64,000 nucleotides of DNA from Escherichia phage EK010: sequence record NC_070981.1; one strand, given 5' to 3'. The position numbers were made by a program, and so were the translations under genes. Under the pieces are notes generated by a model, which was given only the letters and a program-made list of their open reading frames with translations, searched no databases and was not told the DNA's origin. Of the stretch, positions 2,537-33,963 are shown one piece after another (positions within the stretch are counted from its first letter, which is position 1; each line of letters starts with the position of its first letter).

Positions 2537-2562
2537 AAGCGCCCTTTTGAGGCGCTTTTTTC
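2537..2562 (+). terminator. intrinsic terminator
   Basis: AAGCGCC/GGCGCTT stem, 7-nt loop, T-tract, directly after stop at 2517. Confidence 0.7.
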
Positions 2563-2766
2563 ATTTCTAAGGTGATTGTATGCCTTACTCCCTTTTAGCT
2601 CGTTGTGATGCGTTACAGGACGCTTATTATTGCTTTACAAGCCATTTCCTGTGATGTATCACGCGTGCACGTTCCTTTACCTCCTGATTTCTTTGTAGTT
2701 CCTATCCTCCCTAAAATAAATTCCTTTATAAAACAGTGAGATATAAAATAATTTGAAAAAAGGGTA

Positions 2767-2795
2767 TTGACAGGGTTTTCCTGTATAGTAATATG
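2767..2795 (+). promoter_or_regulatory. sigma70-type promoter P1 (TTGACA-16-TAATAT)
   Basis: Consensus -35 hexamer plus A-tract UP-like element upstream. Confidence 0.6.
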
Positions 2796-2922
2796 AATCC
2801 CGTAGTAAGCAGTAAGTAACAACAAGTAGTAAAAACTCCTCGATAGGTGATTAGCATCACGGTAAAAGGCTTCAACGGGGAGCGGTAGGAATACCGACAG
2901 TAAGACGCACAATGAAGTGCTA

Positions 2923-2936
2923 CGCTCTTTAAAAAT
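2923..2936 (+). promoter_or_regulatory. boxA-like antitermination motif CGCTCTTTAAAAAT
   Basis: Matches lambda nutL boxA (CGCTCTTAAAAA) and rrn boxA (GCTCTTTAACAA) consensus. Confidence 0.5.
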
Positions 2937-2970
2937 CAGGCTAGAAAGTGAAAATACTTTAAAAATAGTA

Positions 2971-2999
2971 TTGACACCGAAAACAGCCTGATTCATAAT
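2971..2999 (+). promoter_or_regulatory. sigma70-type promoter P2 (TTGACA-17-CATAAT)
   Basis: Near-consensus hexamers, A-rich upstream. Confidence 0.65.
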
Positions 3000-3032
3000 A
3001 AGCACTCAGTCAGCGATGACTTAAAATATCCC

Positions 3033-3046
3033 CGCTCTTTAAAAAT
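3033..3046 (+). promoter_or_regulatory. boxA-like motif CGCTCTTTAAAAAT
   Basis: ~30 nt downstream of P2 -10. Confidence 0.55.
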
Positions 3047-3095
3047 ATGATTTGTCTTACAGGTGGCGGCGACGTCATTACTATAAGGCGCTTAG

Positions 3096-3124
3096 TTGAC
3101 CACTAGAATTGATTCCTGATTCAT
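3096..3124 (+). promoter_or_regulatory. degenerate copy of the P2/P4 promoter module (TTGACC ... CATACG)
   Basis: Aligns with P2/P4 but -10 hexamer is degraded. Confidence 0.25.
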
Positions 3125-3302
3125 ACGTGAAACAGGCGGACGATGAGCAACAAAATAAGCCTCATTTGTTCGATACTTTCAAATGGTCGATGCTTGAAAG
3201 CGCACTAGATTCCTAAAAGACAAATCAGACTTATCATCTTGCCCTTTCGCATAGATTCACGCGAGATAAGGGAACGGAATAAAAGAAGACGATAAAAAAG
3301 AG

Positions 3303-3330
3303 TTGACAAGGTGAAACGTTCTGATAGAAT
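3303..3330 (+). promoter_or_regulatory. sigma70-type promoter P3 (TTGACA-16-TAGAAT, TG extended -10)
   Basis: Hexamers read directly; A-rich UP-like tract upstream. Confidence 0.65.
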
Positions 3331-3353
3331 GTTCACTAAGCAGTAAGAAACAC

Positions 3354-3367
3354 CGCTCTTTAAAAAT
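3354..3367 (+). promoter_or_regulatory. boxA-like motif CGCTCTTTAAAAAT
   Basis: ~20 nt downstream of P3 -10; followed by TAAGCG-CAAC-CGCTTA hairpin. Confidence 0.55.
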
Positions 3368-3469
3368 ATGAATCAGAAAGTTAAGCGCAACCGCTTACAA
3401 TCTTGTTAATCCAATGCGTGATTAACTGGTCATTCGAAAGAATAGACGAGAAAAAGATTTAAAAAGTGG

Positions 3470-3498
3470 TTGACACGCTAAACAGGATGATTCATAAT
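3470..3498 (+). promoter_or_regulatory. sigma70-type promoter P4 (TTGACA-17-CATAAT)
   Basis: Near-identical module to P2. Confidence 0.65.
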
Positions 3499-3587
3499 GA
3501 GCACTCACTAAGCAAATCACCGCGAAGTGAACAGCGTAACAACGGCTAACAGTTGCATAGTGTGAGAAAACACACTGATAGATTTAC

Positions 3588-3600
3588 CGCTCTTTAACAA
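3588..3600 (+). promoter_or_regulatory. boxA-like motif CGCTCTTTAACAA (rrn-type)
   Basis: 12/13 match to E. coli rrn boxA as I recall it; followed by TTTAAACA. Confidence 0.55.
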
Positions 3601-4414
3601 TTTAAACATTCTCCTATATCGGTTGAATATGCTAGATGATAATAACCATCGGATAGCATACCAGATAAAACGGTGTAAGATTCTCTAAACTATCAGAGTA
3701 AACAACCTTACAATCCCTTAACTGGAAACGTCACCACTGATAAACAGATTCATCGAGTGCACGCAAAGACTTAAGCTAATCGCCCACGGTTAAGGGTAGC
3801 GGCGGTCATCGCTAACAAGGCGCTACGGTGAAAGAAGTTAATCGGGGTAGGCAATTCCGACGAATACAAGCTCAATTGAGAGCGGCGGTGAGTGGTTAAA
3901 GAGTAGCAAATTGCTATTTAACAATAAGGTTTAGTGTGAACGTTTACGAAGTGAATGATTTGAGGCCACTATTGATGGCGTACATAATCAGTTTATGTAG
4001 TAAACCTGCTGAAAGATATAAAACGTCAATGTATCAGGCGGCTAATGACTCTTTCGCAATAACCTCCCGTAGTGGGCGATGGTTAGCGATTGAGAGTTAG
4101 TATAAAAGGATAGGCGGGAGCGAAAGCAAAGTAAACGATATTACCGACGGTTACAATAAAGTAACTAATTAGAGTCGGGCACACTGCCTTATTGTGATGA
4201 TTGATCATCGCTGGCAAATCGGCTTTGTTTATAGCGATTAGTTGAATCCACCAGATGAAACATCACGGCAAGTTAGGCGGCAAGGTTAACTCCTGATAAG
4301 ACCGCCTGATTTACCACTGGTTACTAATAGTTAGTGATTAGTGTTAAGTCATTGTGACTTGAATAGCTCATAGAGAGCGGCGCATAGTGCGTTTACAATT
4401 GAAAGGTGAATATC

Positions 4415-5317: not shown

Positions 5318-5338
5318 CCCATAATAAAGAACAAGTAA

Positions 5339-5371
5339 GGCGCTATTCGAAAAGGTAGCGCCTTTTCTTTT
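5339..5371 (+). terminator. intrinsic terminator
   Basis: GGCGCTA/TAGCGCC stem with T-tract after stop 5317. Confidence 0.7.
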
Positions 5372-5416
5372 ACTAGTGCATTGATTCAGTGTGCTAATCA
5401 AAGAAACTAAAAAGAG

Positions 5417-5650
5417 ATGATCACCATGCCAAAATTGAAAACAGAAGTTAAGATGTATCGTAATATCTTAAACAATATGACCTATCGTAAAACCGATAGA
5501 TATGGAATCGAATGCAAATGCACCCTTACCGGTGAATGGTATCCGTCACCGATTCAAGAACAAGCCTTGATTGATAACTCTGTCACTTATACTATCACGC
5601 AGGAAACTAAGTTAGGTCGTCTACTTCGTAAGCTAGGGCTTCGCAAATGA
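5417..5650 (+). CDS. hypothetical small protein (77 aa)
   Basis: Track ORF with AAAGAG SD-like sequence. Confidence 0.5.
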   Translation: MITMPKLKTEVKMYRNILNNMTYRKTDRYGIECKCTLTGEWYPSPIQEQALIDNSVTYTITQETKLGRLLRKLGLRK

Positions 5651-5868
5651 TTTTAACTCAATCCCACCTTTGCCCCATCTGTAAGAAAGCACGTGCTAAC
5701 AACAACCATCGCAAATGTAGCAGAATCTTACAACGTCGTCGTAATGATGCCGAGATGGATAAGATTCGAAAGAATCAGCATGAGCACGAAAGAAAACAAG
5801 CGGCGATTAGTGCATCTTCTGTAATGTATCGTCGTGTAAGAGCACTCCAATATAAAGAGGTTGTTTAA
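5647..5868 (+). CDS. hypothetical small basic protein with CxxC motif (73 aa)
   Basis: Track ORF; start overlaps upstream stop. Confidence 0.5.
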   Translation: MILTQSHLCPICKKARANNNHRKCSRILQRRRNDAEMDKIRKNQHEHERKQAAISASSVMYRRVRALQYKEVV

Positions 5869-6078
5869 ATGACTAGTTTAAGCACGTTAGAGAAGAAAGC
5901 GACTCGACTGTTAGGGCGTCGTGTCCGCTACCACTACCTGAATAAAGGTAAGGCATTAACCGGACGTATTACCACGGTATCCAGTTGTCGCGGTAAACTG
6001 ATCTCTGTAAGTGTTCTCTTTGATGGTGAAAAGGTAGCAATTACACGTAGTTGGAAGTCATTTAGTTTAATTGATTAA
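5869..6078 (+). CDS. hypothetical small protein (69 aa)
   Basis: Track ORF adjacent to previous gene. Confidence 0.5.
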   Translation: MTSLSTLEKKATRLLGRRVRYHYLNKGKALTGRITTVSSCRGKLISVSVLFDGEKVAITRSWKSFSLID

Positions 6079-6148
6079 GTTATTTGGTTAAGCCTTGCTG
6101 TGTGGTAAGGCTTGCACGATATAATTTATCAGCGAAAGGAATAAAGCA

Positions 6149-6592
6149 ATGGCTAAATCTAAAATCAGCATGAAAGGCGGACGAGTGTTCTCTATGAGTG
6201 AGCTGGAAAAAGAAAAGCCAGCCGCTGTTAACCATATTAGCAAACGTAGCCTTAAACGCAGGGCTATGAAACAGGCCGCTCAAGAACATAAAGAATCTCC
6301 TGTACCAAAGGTACTAGGTCGCCGTGTTCATCGTGCTGATGCGCTTCTTCTTGCTGATCACAAGCGTTCCTTGTTAACCAACGGGGCGGCGAAAACGGAA
6401 CAAGAAAAGCGTTTAGAAATCTTCTGCAACGGTCGCACTAAAGGTAAGCAGAAGAATAAAGGTAGCACTAAGCCGCCGAAAGCATTCCCTACTACTAGCC
6501 AATGTGCACCTGATGTTTTCTACGCTGATAGCAAACACAAGTGGGGAGTTGAAAAATATATTGACCCAATCAAAACAGCAAGAGTTAAGTAA
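6149..6592 (+). CDS. hypothetical basic protein (147 aa)
   Basis: Track ORF; Lys/Arg-rich. Confidence 0.6.
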   Translation: MAKSKISMKGGRVFSMSELEKEKPAAVNHISKRSLKRRAMKQAAQEHKESPVPKVLGRRVHRADALLLADHKRSLLTNGAAKTEQEKRLEIFCNGRTKGKQKNKGSTKPPKAFPTTSQCAPDVFYADSKHKWGVEKYIDPIKTARVK

Positions 6593-6622
6593 GCCCCTTC
6601 TGTACCAGTGGTCAACTACTAT

Positions 6623-6646
6623 GACGCTCTTCTTGAGCGTCTTTTT
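6623..6646 (+). terminator. intrinsic terminator T1
   Basis: GACGCTC/GAGCGTC stem, TTTTT. Confidence 0.75.
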
Positions 6647-6650
6647 GTCT

Positions 6651-6671
6651 GCCGCCTTTGTGCGGCTTTTT
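6651..6671 (+). terminator. intrinsic terminator T2
   Basis: GCCGC/GCGGC stem, TTTTT. Confidence 0.7.
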
Positions 6672-6752
6672 GCGTAGCTAGTGATGCCTAAAGGGAACTC
6701 CCTTTGTGAATCATTGGCATGGTTCAATTCCTATTGGATGGTCATTTGACCG

Positions 6753-6776
6753 GGCCTTTAACGAGGCCTCTTTTTT
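6753..6776 (+). terminator. intrinsic terminator T3
   Basis: GGCCT/AGGCC stem, TCTTTTTT. Confidence 0.55.
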
Positions 6777-6800
6777 AAGAGTCTTTACGAGGATTCTTAA

Positions 6801-6932
6801 ATGAGTGAGGTCATGTTCACTCTTTCAGGTCGCCCCGTCTTCGGATGGGGCTTTTTTATGCCCGTAAAACAGGGGGTAGTAAGTTCTGATAACGACAGCC
6901 CAGCTACTTTTGACATTGACTATTTATTATGA
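6801..6932 (+). CDS. possible short leader ORF (43 aa) spanning terminator T4
   Basis: ATG with GAGGA SD; overlaps start of 6910 gene in another frame; below track size cut-off. Confidence 0.2.
   Translation: MSEVMFTLSGRPVFGWGFFMPVKQGVVSSDNDSPATFDIDYLL
6832..6857 (+). terminator. intrinsic terminator T4
   Basis: GCCCC/GGGGC stem, TTTTTT. Confidence 0.7.
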
Positions 6933-7296
6933 GGCAGGGAATCAGCCAACCGCTTGCAAAGCATTAGTAGCGGATACCGTAATAAACAGAATGTCACAAC
7001 GAAAACTGACTGCCGAGCAGGTTATAAACCAACGAAACCAGTTCGAGTGGATACCCGTCCTATTAAAGAAGGAGAAACCTTTTAAGCGTTATGTAAAGCT
7101 GATTCGTGATGATAATCCTCTGATAAAGAAAGCAATCAGAGAGAGCGAGGAGCTTGCAAGACGTGCACTGAAGAAGGGTTATGTGCCTTTATATAGCGGT
7201 ACATACTTTCAGAGTAAGAGCGAAGGGGTGCCAAAGTGGTATACCAATCCAATGTATTGTGGTGATTTAGTGTTCAATAATAGTGCCCGTGACTGA
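6910..7296 (+). CDS. SleB/CwlJ-like cell-wall hydrolase domain protein
   Basis: IYYEAGNQ...CKALVADTVINR...QVINQRNQFEW motifs typical of Hydrolase_2 family; apparent TTG start. Confidence 0.55.
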   Translation: MTLTIYYEAGNQPTACKALVADTVINRMSQRKLTAEQVINQRNQFEWIPVLLKKEKPFKRYVKLIRDDNPLIKKAIRESEELARRALKKGYVPLYSGTYFQSKSEGVPKWYTNPMYCGDLVFNNSARD

Positions 7297-7497
7297 TTCA
7301 TAGGTGCCAAGATCGACAAACTAAATTCCCTTATAAATCACCTACTTATGATTTTCTCTGTAAAAAGTGGTAGTGATTCGGAACCAGAGGTAATGACTGT
7401 ATATAGACCTCTGAAAATTATTGATAGAAATTAAGTTTAGAAATAATAAATTCTAAATAATATTTCTTATAATATCTTACTTTAAGAGGATAAAGAT

Positions 7498-9751: not shown

Positions 9752-9916
9752 ATGATTAAATGGTTCAAGCGTCTTGTGCACCTGCATGATTGGGTAATCC
9801 TTGAAAAATATACGCTGAAGATTACTGACGATCACGGTGGGACAAAGCACAAAGGTCTTCGCTATATTATGCAGTGTAAAGTGTGTGGTCATGTTACCAA
9901 GCGTGACATGATCTAA
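9752..9916 (+). CDS. small CxxC protein, tandem paralog 1 (MIKWFKRL...)
   Basis: Internal ATG of track ORF 9728-9916; near-identical N-terminus to next gene. Confidence 0.5.
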   Translation: MIKWFKRLVHLHDWVILEKYTLKITDDHGGTKHKGLRYIMQCKVCGHVTKRDMI

Positions 9917-10317: not shown

Positions 10318-10395
10318 GCACCCTTAGCTCAATTGGATTAGAGTAGCGACCTTCTAAGTCGTCGGTTACAGGTTCGAATCCTGTAGGGTGCACCA
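10318..10395 (+). tRNA. tRNA-Arg (anticodon UCU)
   Basis: Hand-folded cloverleaf: 7-bp acceptor stem GCACCCT/AGGGTGC, anticodon loop CUUCUAA, T-arm ACAGG-TTCGAAT-CCTGT, encoded CCA. Confidence 0.85.
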
Positions 10396-33954: not shown

Positions 33955-33963
33955 TAATGTATA
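33955..33963 (+). promoter_or_regulatory. TAATGTATA motif, candidate phage-sigma promoter element
   Basis: Exact 9-mer 33 nt upstream of ATG 33996. Confidence 0.4.

Follow-up and report, generated by a model that had tools for sequence, protein, structure and literature searches.

Escherichia phage EK010 (sequence record NC_070981.1) has been analysed here as a stretch of 64,000 nucleotides (nt), referred to as the window, in which positions 6593-6870 separate an early gene from the gene of a SleB-like cell-wall hydrolase. This spacer is probably a compound intrinsic-terminator region that acts in one direction only and is embedded in an array of RNA hairpins, inside an early operon transcribed by the host RNA polymerase (RNAP) and at a hot spot for gene insertion. 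This interpretation is based on structure prediction, on site statistics and on the comparison of related phages.

A sequence-only reading of this DNA had listed four sites consisting of a hairpin and a T-tract, at about 6623, 6651, 6753 and 6832 (here T1 to T4), and a consensus scan finds all four on the + strand. In the window, each of them passes a U-tract criterion of at least five U's among the eight residues right 3' of the stem. Shuffled sequences lead to an expectation of 14.1 terminator-like sites in 20 kb with both strands counted, or approximately 0.085 in 240 nt of a single strand. Four sites on one strand within 240 nt thus correspond, by our own estimate, to a Poisson p of about 2e-6 per window of that size and, after correction for a 64-kb scan, of about 1e-3 to 4e-3. 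The complete spacer (278 nt) folds at -108 kcal/mol, versus -75 +/- 4.8 kcal/mol for its shuffles (z = -7.05), and the fold is a succession of nine consecutive hairpins. Other annotators have already predicted T1/T2, T2 or T4 as terminators in the records of relatives; T2 is annotated in WFI101126 and 4E8, and T4 in these two and in Paul. In the RNA-seq set PRJNA1225266, obtained from E. coli NC101 at 10 min of infection by the Kuraviruses RSB02 and RSB04 (PX402466 and PX402468), the reads were aligned by its authors to the host alone (PMC12803456).

The relatives available for comparison form a coherent set. A megablast search with positions 5400-7400 retrieved 97 phage records, all of them phiEco32-like podophages (Gordonclarkvirinae) of E. 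coli or Shigella, with E20-1 as the closest record (99.2%) and SU7, IME267, MLP3 and Bas86-88 at 92-96%. The + strand of the window is the reverse complement of most of these records, and gene numbers descend along it. The region was extracted from about 25 relatives, which constitute the comparative set. When positions 6590-6940 were used in BLASTN, the full stretch was shared by only about 20 close relatives, at 95-99%; the part from about 6822 on, which corresponds to T4, is common to many more Kuravirus genomes, and the part from about 6866 on is common to all relatives. A pattern scan of viral contigs yielded only five loci, mostly from phages already known in GenBank. Positions 6668-6862 gave no BLASTN match in 5,426 E. 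coli genomes, and a host origin of the insert has been rejected on this basis.

The four sites differ clearly in their distribution. Each of the 22 relatives with the module has both T2 and T4. The stem of T2 (GCCGC/GCGGC) is unchanged in the 22 of them, while the loop differs (CTTTGT, CTCTGT, CTTTGA or CTTTGG) and the U-tract comprises from four to six T's; T2 is ancestral, and probably a weak terminator. T4 occurs in every genome that bears the module, with a UUCG loop or, in Kuravirus, a UACG loop, both of the UNCG class. One of its pairs has undergone a compensatory change from G-C to U-A, and one G-U pair is present in all sequences. T4 is ancestral too, and would be the main terminator of the cluster.

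Most Kuravirus genomes retain the T1 hairpin, with one change from G-C to G-U in TH38, but it is followed there by GUGCCCUCUCCCC and not by U's; a T-tract is found in no Kuravirus genome, and the hairpin itself is missing from the 4E8, Bas89 and KBNP1711 types. Even among nine genomes of the window type, only two (the window and Bas87) have at least five T's, the tail of the other seven being CTTTTG, CTTTG or CTTTGTG. As a terminator, T1 is therefore lineage-specific, having acquired this character only with the gain of a U-tract. T3 is confined to the approximately 20 closest (Suseptimavirus-like) genomes, where it belongs to an insert of about 100 nt together with the small hairpins H4, H5 and H7, and it is missing from every Kuravirus-type sequence examined. 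The four tandem terminators thus comprise two ancestral ones and two recent ones confined to particular lineages: the proposal of four equivalent stacked terminators stands as far as their presence in the window is concerned, but not in their equivalence.

The coordinates of these sites, of the other hairpins and of the neighbouring features are collected in Table 1.

Table 1. Features of the terminator region and of the early region around it (positions of the window)
Feature	Position	Strand	Description and basis
sigma70 promoters	2767-2794, 2971-2999, 3303-3330, 3470-3498	+	11/12 matches; consensus scan
boxA CGCTCTTTA	2923, 3033, 3354, 3588 (span 2923-3596)	+	exact consensus
Upstream early gene, phi32_120 homolog	6149..6592	+	147 aa; ORF list; annotated homologs in SU7, phiEco32, Bas87 and others
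T1	6623-6641 (6623..6647 with tract)	+	7-bp stem GACGCUC/GAGCGUC, tail TTTTTG, -11.3 kcal/mol
T2	6651-6666 (6651..6672 with tract)	+	5-bp all-G-C stem GCCGC/GCGGC, tail TTTTTG, -7.9 kcal/mol
H3	6677..6718	+	long irregular hairpin of ~17 bp, -20.8 kcal/mol, directly 3' of T2
H4, H5	6722-6739, 6740-6751 (together 6722..6751)	+	small hairpins of the window-type-specific insert
T3	6752-6769 (6752..6776 with tract)	+	7-bp stem, tail CTTTTTT, -9.5 kcal/mol
H7	6774..6801	+	12-bp hairpin with G-U pairs; sequesters GAGGA (6789-6793) and the first base of ATG 6801
H8	6803..6822	+	7-bp hairpin, hexaloop GUCAUG, just 5' of T4
T4	6832-6851 (6832..6857 with tract)	+	8-bp stem, UUCG loop, tail TTTTTT, -14.8 kcal/mol
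Shine-Dalgarno sequence of the hydrolase	6871..6876	+	AGGGGG (AGGAGG in Kuravirus); start of the block shared by all relatives
SleB-like cell-wall hydrolase, proposed extent	6886..7296	+	PF07486; CTG start

The hairpins of the array are under selection as structures of the + strand RNA. The G-U pairs of T4 and H7 show that the structures belong to this strand. In H7, three one-sided changes preserve pairing (G-C to G-U twice, and U-A to U-G), and the loop is UACG, UGCG, UGAG or UUCG. The changes of H3 among close relatives are all located in the loop or in a bulge. In nine close relatives, only five of the approximately 16 variable columns fall in stems, and four of these five still pair.

The stem of H8 reads GAGUGAG/UUCACUC in the window, AGCAACG/UGUUGCU in most Kuravirus genomes and GCAAUA/UAUUGC in the 4E8 type, while its GUCAUG loop and the downstream UUUCAGGU linker are invariant across lineages. 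Its covariation, drawn from only about three independent lineages and from an alignment of trimmed and re-aligned modules, involves changes on both sides in six of the seven pairs, with 98% of the cells paired; when the 3' partner is slid, 37-51% are paired, and none of 500 shuffles matches the observed covariation score. Because these pairs have changed on both sides between lineages, H8 is a selected RNA structure. Further copies of GGTCATGT, at 9887 and 16759, lie within genes and are not accompanied by a similar module.

At the position of H3, Kuravirus genomes show a different 16-bp hairpin of unrelated sequence. The 3' arm of this hairpin (AGCAAC) doubles as the 5' arm of H8, which makes the two structures mutually exclusive, whereas in window-type genomes the long hairpin and H8 are separate. 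An irregular hairpin of 16-19 bp that occupies the same position in both lineages with unrelated sequences, within a stable hairpin array at an operon junction, is what would be expected if H3 or its Kuravirus counterpart were an RNase III-type site, with the other hairpins as 3' protectors and termination as a secondary effect. In this respect the region would resemble the T7 early region with its RNase III sites. However, the long hairpin of the 4E8 type has two mismatched pairs, and a role in RNA processing and stability as the primary function seems very unlikely to us.

The selected structures have also been considered as parts of a small RNA (sRNA) locus, in which the segments T2-T3 (about 105 nt), T3-T4 (about 85 nt) or, in Kuravirus, T2-T4 (about 90 nt) would accumulate as stable RNAs. 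Such RNAs would end at T3 or T4 and be released by processing of read-through transcripts, and the GUCAUG loop with the UUUCAGGU linker would be the seed or a protein-binding part. The build is that of an sRNA, in which hairpins on the 5' side are followed by a U-rich linker left single-stranded and by a strong six-U terminator; H8 covaries around an invariant loop and linker, the structures are specific to the + strand, and the substitutions in H7 preserve structure. The distant Salmonella phage 7-11 has an analogous stretch, 246 nt of non-coding structured sequence (z = -5.7, 316-561 of the extracted locus) located before the hydrolase homolog and ending in an annotated terminator, that is, a layout as in the window without sequence similarity. 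Nevertheless, no promoter has been detected within or just upstream of the segments (6590-6900), and a scan of the whole window against Rfam at gathering thresholds returned only a tRNA-Arg at 10318. A permissive Rfam scan of 6560-6940 gave only sub-threshold, terminator-driven matches, the best of them with 20.3 bits against a cut-off of 49.5 bits. Sequences complementary to the H8 loop and linker are no more frequent on the phage + strand than expected by chance, H8 is lacking in KBNP1711, and the lack of similarity in E. coli genomes mentioned above also argues against this reading. According to these data, an sRNA locus appears unlikely.

The sequence-only reading had also drawn attention to a 43-codon open reading frame (ORF) that runs through T4, and had suggested that its translation is coupled to read-through in an attenuation-like manner. 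This ORF (6801-6932, 43 aa, ATG start, + strand) does exist in the ORF list. The Shine-Dalgarno (SD) sequence attributed to it is also present, as GAGGA at 6789-6793, 7 nt before the ATG, but its quality is doubtful, as it is base-paired in H7 together with the A of the ATG, the G of which forms the first pair of H8. Regarding its overlap with the SleB-like gene, the hydrolase frame is indeed +1, but the TTG start (6910) from which the overlap had been read is not the favoured one (see below).

Comparison of relatives does not point to a conserved peptide. In Bas86, Bas87, Bas88 and ECBP2, an extra A (AAAACAAGGGGG) causes the ORF to stop at a TGA after 29 codons, and in SU7, PAS59 and IME267, the loss of a C (CACTTTTCAGG) leads to a TAA after 21 codons and to a different peptide across T4. 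The ORF thus has 43, 29 or 21 codons among genomes that are 92-99% identical, with three different peptides across T4. Kuravirus genomes have neither ATG 6801 nor its GAGGA, though H8 and T4 are kept, and every substitution relative to phiEco32 in the 3' part of the ORF is non-synonymous in its frame. T4 is free of stop codons in all three frames as a matter of composition, so that any upstream ATG frame spans it. According to these comparisons, the ORF is judged to be non-coding, a by-product of stop-free hairpin sequence. In phiEco32 it bears the annotation phi32_118, and in Bas phages it appears in the form of small coding sequences (CDSs); phi32_118 (43 aa) begins inside the terminator hairpin of the gp119 gene (described below) and looks spurious. 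The minus-strand ORFs 6797-6916 and 6413-6727 are not credible either, as they are disrupted by the same indels.

Leader-peptide attenuation, in which translation of the 43-codon ORF through T4 would block the hairpin and couple read-through to translation, could draw on the GAGGA-preceded ATG and on the fact that some ATG-started frame crosses T4 in every relative with the H8-T4 module (KBNP1711, without H8, has none). Moreover, the Bas87-type ORF ends at a TGA that overlaps the CTG of the hydrolase (CTGA), where reinitiation could follow. However, in addition to the variation in frame, length and peptide, the absence of ATG and SD from Kuravirus genomes, the sequestered start and the non-synonymous substitutions, inspection of the sequence and of the fold revealed no upstream segment complementary to the 5' arm of T4 (GCCCCGUC) that could act as an antiterminator. 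Both the minimum free energy and the centroid folds always contain T4. No run of regulatory codons is found in the peptide (MSEVMFTLSGRPVFGWGFFMPVKQGVV...), and the peptides differ between relatives. Because the ORF, its SD and start, the antiterminator and the codon run all fail to provide what this mechanism needs, attenuation has been largely refuted by comparison and is highly improbable.

The position of the cluster in the early region differs from what had been proposed, since it does not close that region. In SU10 and phiEco32, early genes comprise CDS 69-125, and no terminator is reported at the end of this class (PMC4281155). The cluster lies between the homologs of phi32_120, the last gene ahead of it (the protein of which has no match in a Pfam search), and of phi32_117, the gene that follows it, only about 3 kb into an early region of approximately 30 kb. 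The motif of middle and late promoters, TAATGTATA, is documented in PMC4331800 and PMC12276001, and the first exact copy of this gp36-sigma motif on the + strand is at 33955. According to PMC4281155, one early promoter precedes CDS125 and serves a unit that is terminated behind CDS121, while three sigma70 promoters lie in the 120/121 spacer, the counterpart of about 2560-3936 in the window. In this interval, some 1.4 kb without long ORFs contain the four near-consensus promoters of Table 1; beyond 3.5 kb, promoter-like sites are at or below chance. Between 1 and 20 kb, 28 terminator-like sites (22 on the + strand) have been found where 14.1 would be expected, and between 20 and 40 kb the figures are 14 and 13.7, as expected by chance. 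Punctuation is thus unusually dense at the front of the early operon, with hairpins, for example, at 2537, 5337, 8729, 8951, 11415, 13587 and 15762.

Promoters are not apparent in the spacer itself: positions 6590-6900 contain no sigma70-like site with at least 9/12 matches and no gp36 motif, and a TTGACC at 6746 has, by eye, no usable -10 hexamer. The distance from T4 to the SD of the hydrolase is about 20 nt, too short for a promoter. In view of this lack of promoters, both in the 20-nt gap and in 6590-6900, the hydrolase would be transcribed by read-through. Downstream of T4, the absence of a strong sigma70 promoter suggests either regulated read-through or promoters that are not recognised as such, for instance near the TATAAT at 7468-7473. 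This perfect hexamer, without a recognisable -35, belongs to the intergenic sequence 3' of the hydrolase (7400-7480), which is very rich in A+T and in which the annotators of SU7 and 4E8 have predicted a promoter that may restart early transcription after T4.

The upstream boxA invoked in the sequence-only reading is indeed found, and in four exact copies of CGCTCTTTA, one of them 24-130 nt after each 11/12 promoter. These four are the only exact copies in the 64 kb, the last one reads GCTCTTTAACAA and is identical to the rrn boxA, and small hairpins stand beside some of them, as judged by eye. These boxA copies are conserved in phiEco32, KBNP1711, NJ01, SU7 and Paul, where they are likewise co-oriented. 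A near-boxA string also occurs in the 5' arm and loop of T1 (6624-6632), which contain CGCTCTTCT (CGCTCTTTC in Kuravirus); it lacks the final A, is partly paired, and is probably coincidental.

With this array at hand, read-through of T1-T4 by a Nus-modified polymerase is plausible. The corresponding regulated barrier would work as follows: RNAP that starts at the four early promoters would gain NusB/E, NusA, NusG and SuhB at boxA and cross T1-T4 and the other early terminators, while unmodified polymerases would stop, splitting early genes into an immediate and a delayed set. The conserved boxA copies after the promoters agree with this, as do the excess of terminator-like sites in the first 20 kb and the fact that early genes reach CDS 69 when the early promoters described in PMC4281155 lie only before CDS125 and in the 120/121 spacer. 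In vitro, the rrn-type boxA/Nus/SuhB complex suppresses intrinsic termination at tR' (PMC6614801). Nevertheless, according to that paper and to PMC4807359, rrn-type complexes act mainly against Rho, so that boxA may only shield the untranslated leader of about 1.4 kb from this factor. Neither an N- or Q-like factor nor a boxB of the nut type has been identified, though no protein search was aimed at an N-like factor, and no paper in the literature searched links these phages with boxA. Furthermore, another strong terminator (5337-5364) is located between boxA and T1-T4, and restart promoters have been predicted by the annotators of SU7 and 4E8. We regard a regulated barrier as plausible, but less likely than not. 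An extended version, in which the array is one checkpoint among several that only Nus/SuhB-modified RNAP can cross, an N-independent, processive antitermination of the rrn style times the delayed-early genes of a virulent coliphage, and the GUCAUG RNAs released at T3/T4 are functional sRNAs, is quite unlikely.

The gene that follows the cluster deserves its SleB-like label, as its product matches Pfam Hydrolase_2 (PF07486) with 31.1 bits (cut-off 27, E = 3.8e-7). The ORF list contains it as a TTG-started ORF (6910-7296), but its start is most likely CTG 6886, located 9 nt 3' of the SD. This SD is followed by TAGYAA and then by the invariant GTTCTGATAAC, and the block formed by the SD and GTTCTGATAAC is the same in EcoN5, Bas92, phiEco32 and SGF2 despite their different upstream genes. 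Three sites vary in codons 3-5 counted from the CTG (ACG/ACA, ACA/ACG and GCC/GCA), all of them synonymous third positions. The homologs from 7-11 and GAP52 begin with an ATG 13 codons before the IY.EAG motif, versus 12 from CTG 6886, and L7, L9, T10 and L11 line up in the alignment. The CTG start is already annotated in the records of Bas86-89, and the annotated ATG of phiEco32 is a CTT in the window. These three lines (synonymous sites, homolog alignment and existing annotations) favour the SD-served CTG over TTG 6910, the start assumed in the sequence-only reading. Annotations of the gene disagree among records, with versions of 101, 129 and 136 aa. In E. coli, CUG initiates at a few percent of the efficiency of AUG, and expression of the hydrolase should consequently be low. 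A role as the main endolysin, by analogy with lambda tR', has been rejected, as these phages have distinct late genes for holin and lysozyme (PMC4281155).

The junction between the two conserved genes is a hot spot for different small accessory genes, some of which come with their own terminators. In phiEco32, the gp119 gene sits directly after T4 and comes with a terminator (CCTCTCCC-GAAA-GGGAGGGG) immediately upstream of the hydrolase SD; gp119 (754-1470 of the extracted phiEco32 locus) is annotated as a tail protein and has Gly-rich, collagen-like Gly-X-X repeats. SGF2 carries another insert after T4, also with a terminator of its own. In KBNP1711, H8 is replaced by a small ORF between the equivalents of T2 and T4, which encodes a hydrophobic peptide (...GGFFFLCGMLFGVIITLLILMIGFMEAVSR), ends just before T4 and represents a candidate membrane-peptide insert. 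Paul, WFI101126 and EP335 have an extra ORF of 57-60 aa ahead of T1, and in EcoN5 and Bas92 a different upstream gene abuts the SD of the hydrolase.

A compound terminator region would function in the following manner. Most early transcripts from upstream would stop at T2 to T4, and the upstream mRNA would be shielded by the stable hairpins at its 3' end. The SleB-like hydrolase would be made only from read-through RNA, with translation starting at a weak CUG (6886) behind a strong, conserved SD, and both the dependence on read-through and the weak start could keep the level of a potentially harmful wall hydrolase low. Several observations weigh against this interpretation. If T4 is efficient, transcription of the downstream early genes (homologs of phi32_116 to 69), which have no strong consensus sigma70 promoter, is unexplained; T2, with a stem of 5 bp, may be very weak as a terminator; and in phages of the EcoN5 type the hydrolase is not preceded by a terminator. 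A role in termination alone does not account for the conserved H8 loop or for the long hairpin that follows T2, and the argument for the CTG start draws on few variable sites, with four of five variable nucleotides at third positions (p ~0.05 by our own count).

As a terminator cluster the region is ordinary, and T2 or T4 had already been marked as predicted in several GenBank records. Regarding annotation, the 43-codon ORF (phi32_118 and the small CDSs of Bas phages) does not merit a gene call, and the start of the hydrolase is probably the SD-served CTG. About 57 early genes of phiEco32 apparently depend on a small number of promoters located at one extremity of the gene cluster, with strong terminators intervening, and the site, along with the conserved boxA array, would make a good reporter for Nus-dependent read-through in these phages. 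H8, with its covarying stem and invariant loop, constitutes a small and cleanly defined candidate phage RNA element.

Among known systems, the cluster resembles tandem Rho-independent terminators such as rrnB T1-T2 and T7 TE in its G+C-rich hairpins followed by U-tracts, closely stacked and co-oriented with the upstream genes. Unlike them, it interrupts an early gene cluster instead of ending it, only two of its four terminators are conserved, five selected hairpins that are not terminators are interleaved, and a promoterless gene follows about 20 nt on. The lambda pR'-6S RNA-tR' region, which lies before the lysis genes and is subject to Q antitermination, would be comparable in its structured non-coding RNA and strong terminator before a wall-hydrolase gene expressed by read-through; in the window, however, no promoter or Q-like factor has been identified, and the hydrolase is not the main lysozyme. 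With the rrn boxA/Nus/SuhB system (rrnTAC), the window has in common an exact boxA, including GCTCTTTAACAA, shortly after very strong sigma70 promoters, as well as long, poorly translated leaders and terminators, but its boxA forms four tandem units located 3.0-3.7 kb upstream of T1-T4, without boxC or a leader-trailer context. Finally, the junction is similar to phage 'moron' cassettes in that variable small genes lie between conserved ones and the inserts bring or abut a terminator (gp119, SGF2 and KBNP1711). In contrast to these cassettes, the corresponding space in the window holds no credible ORF, but only structured RNA.

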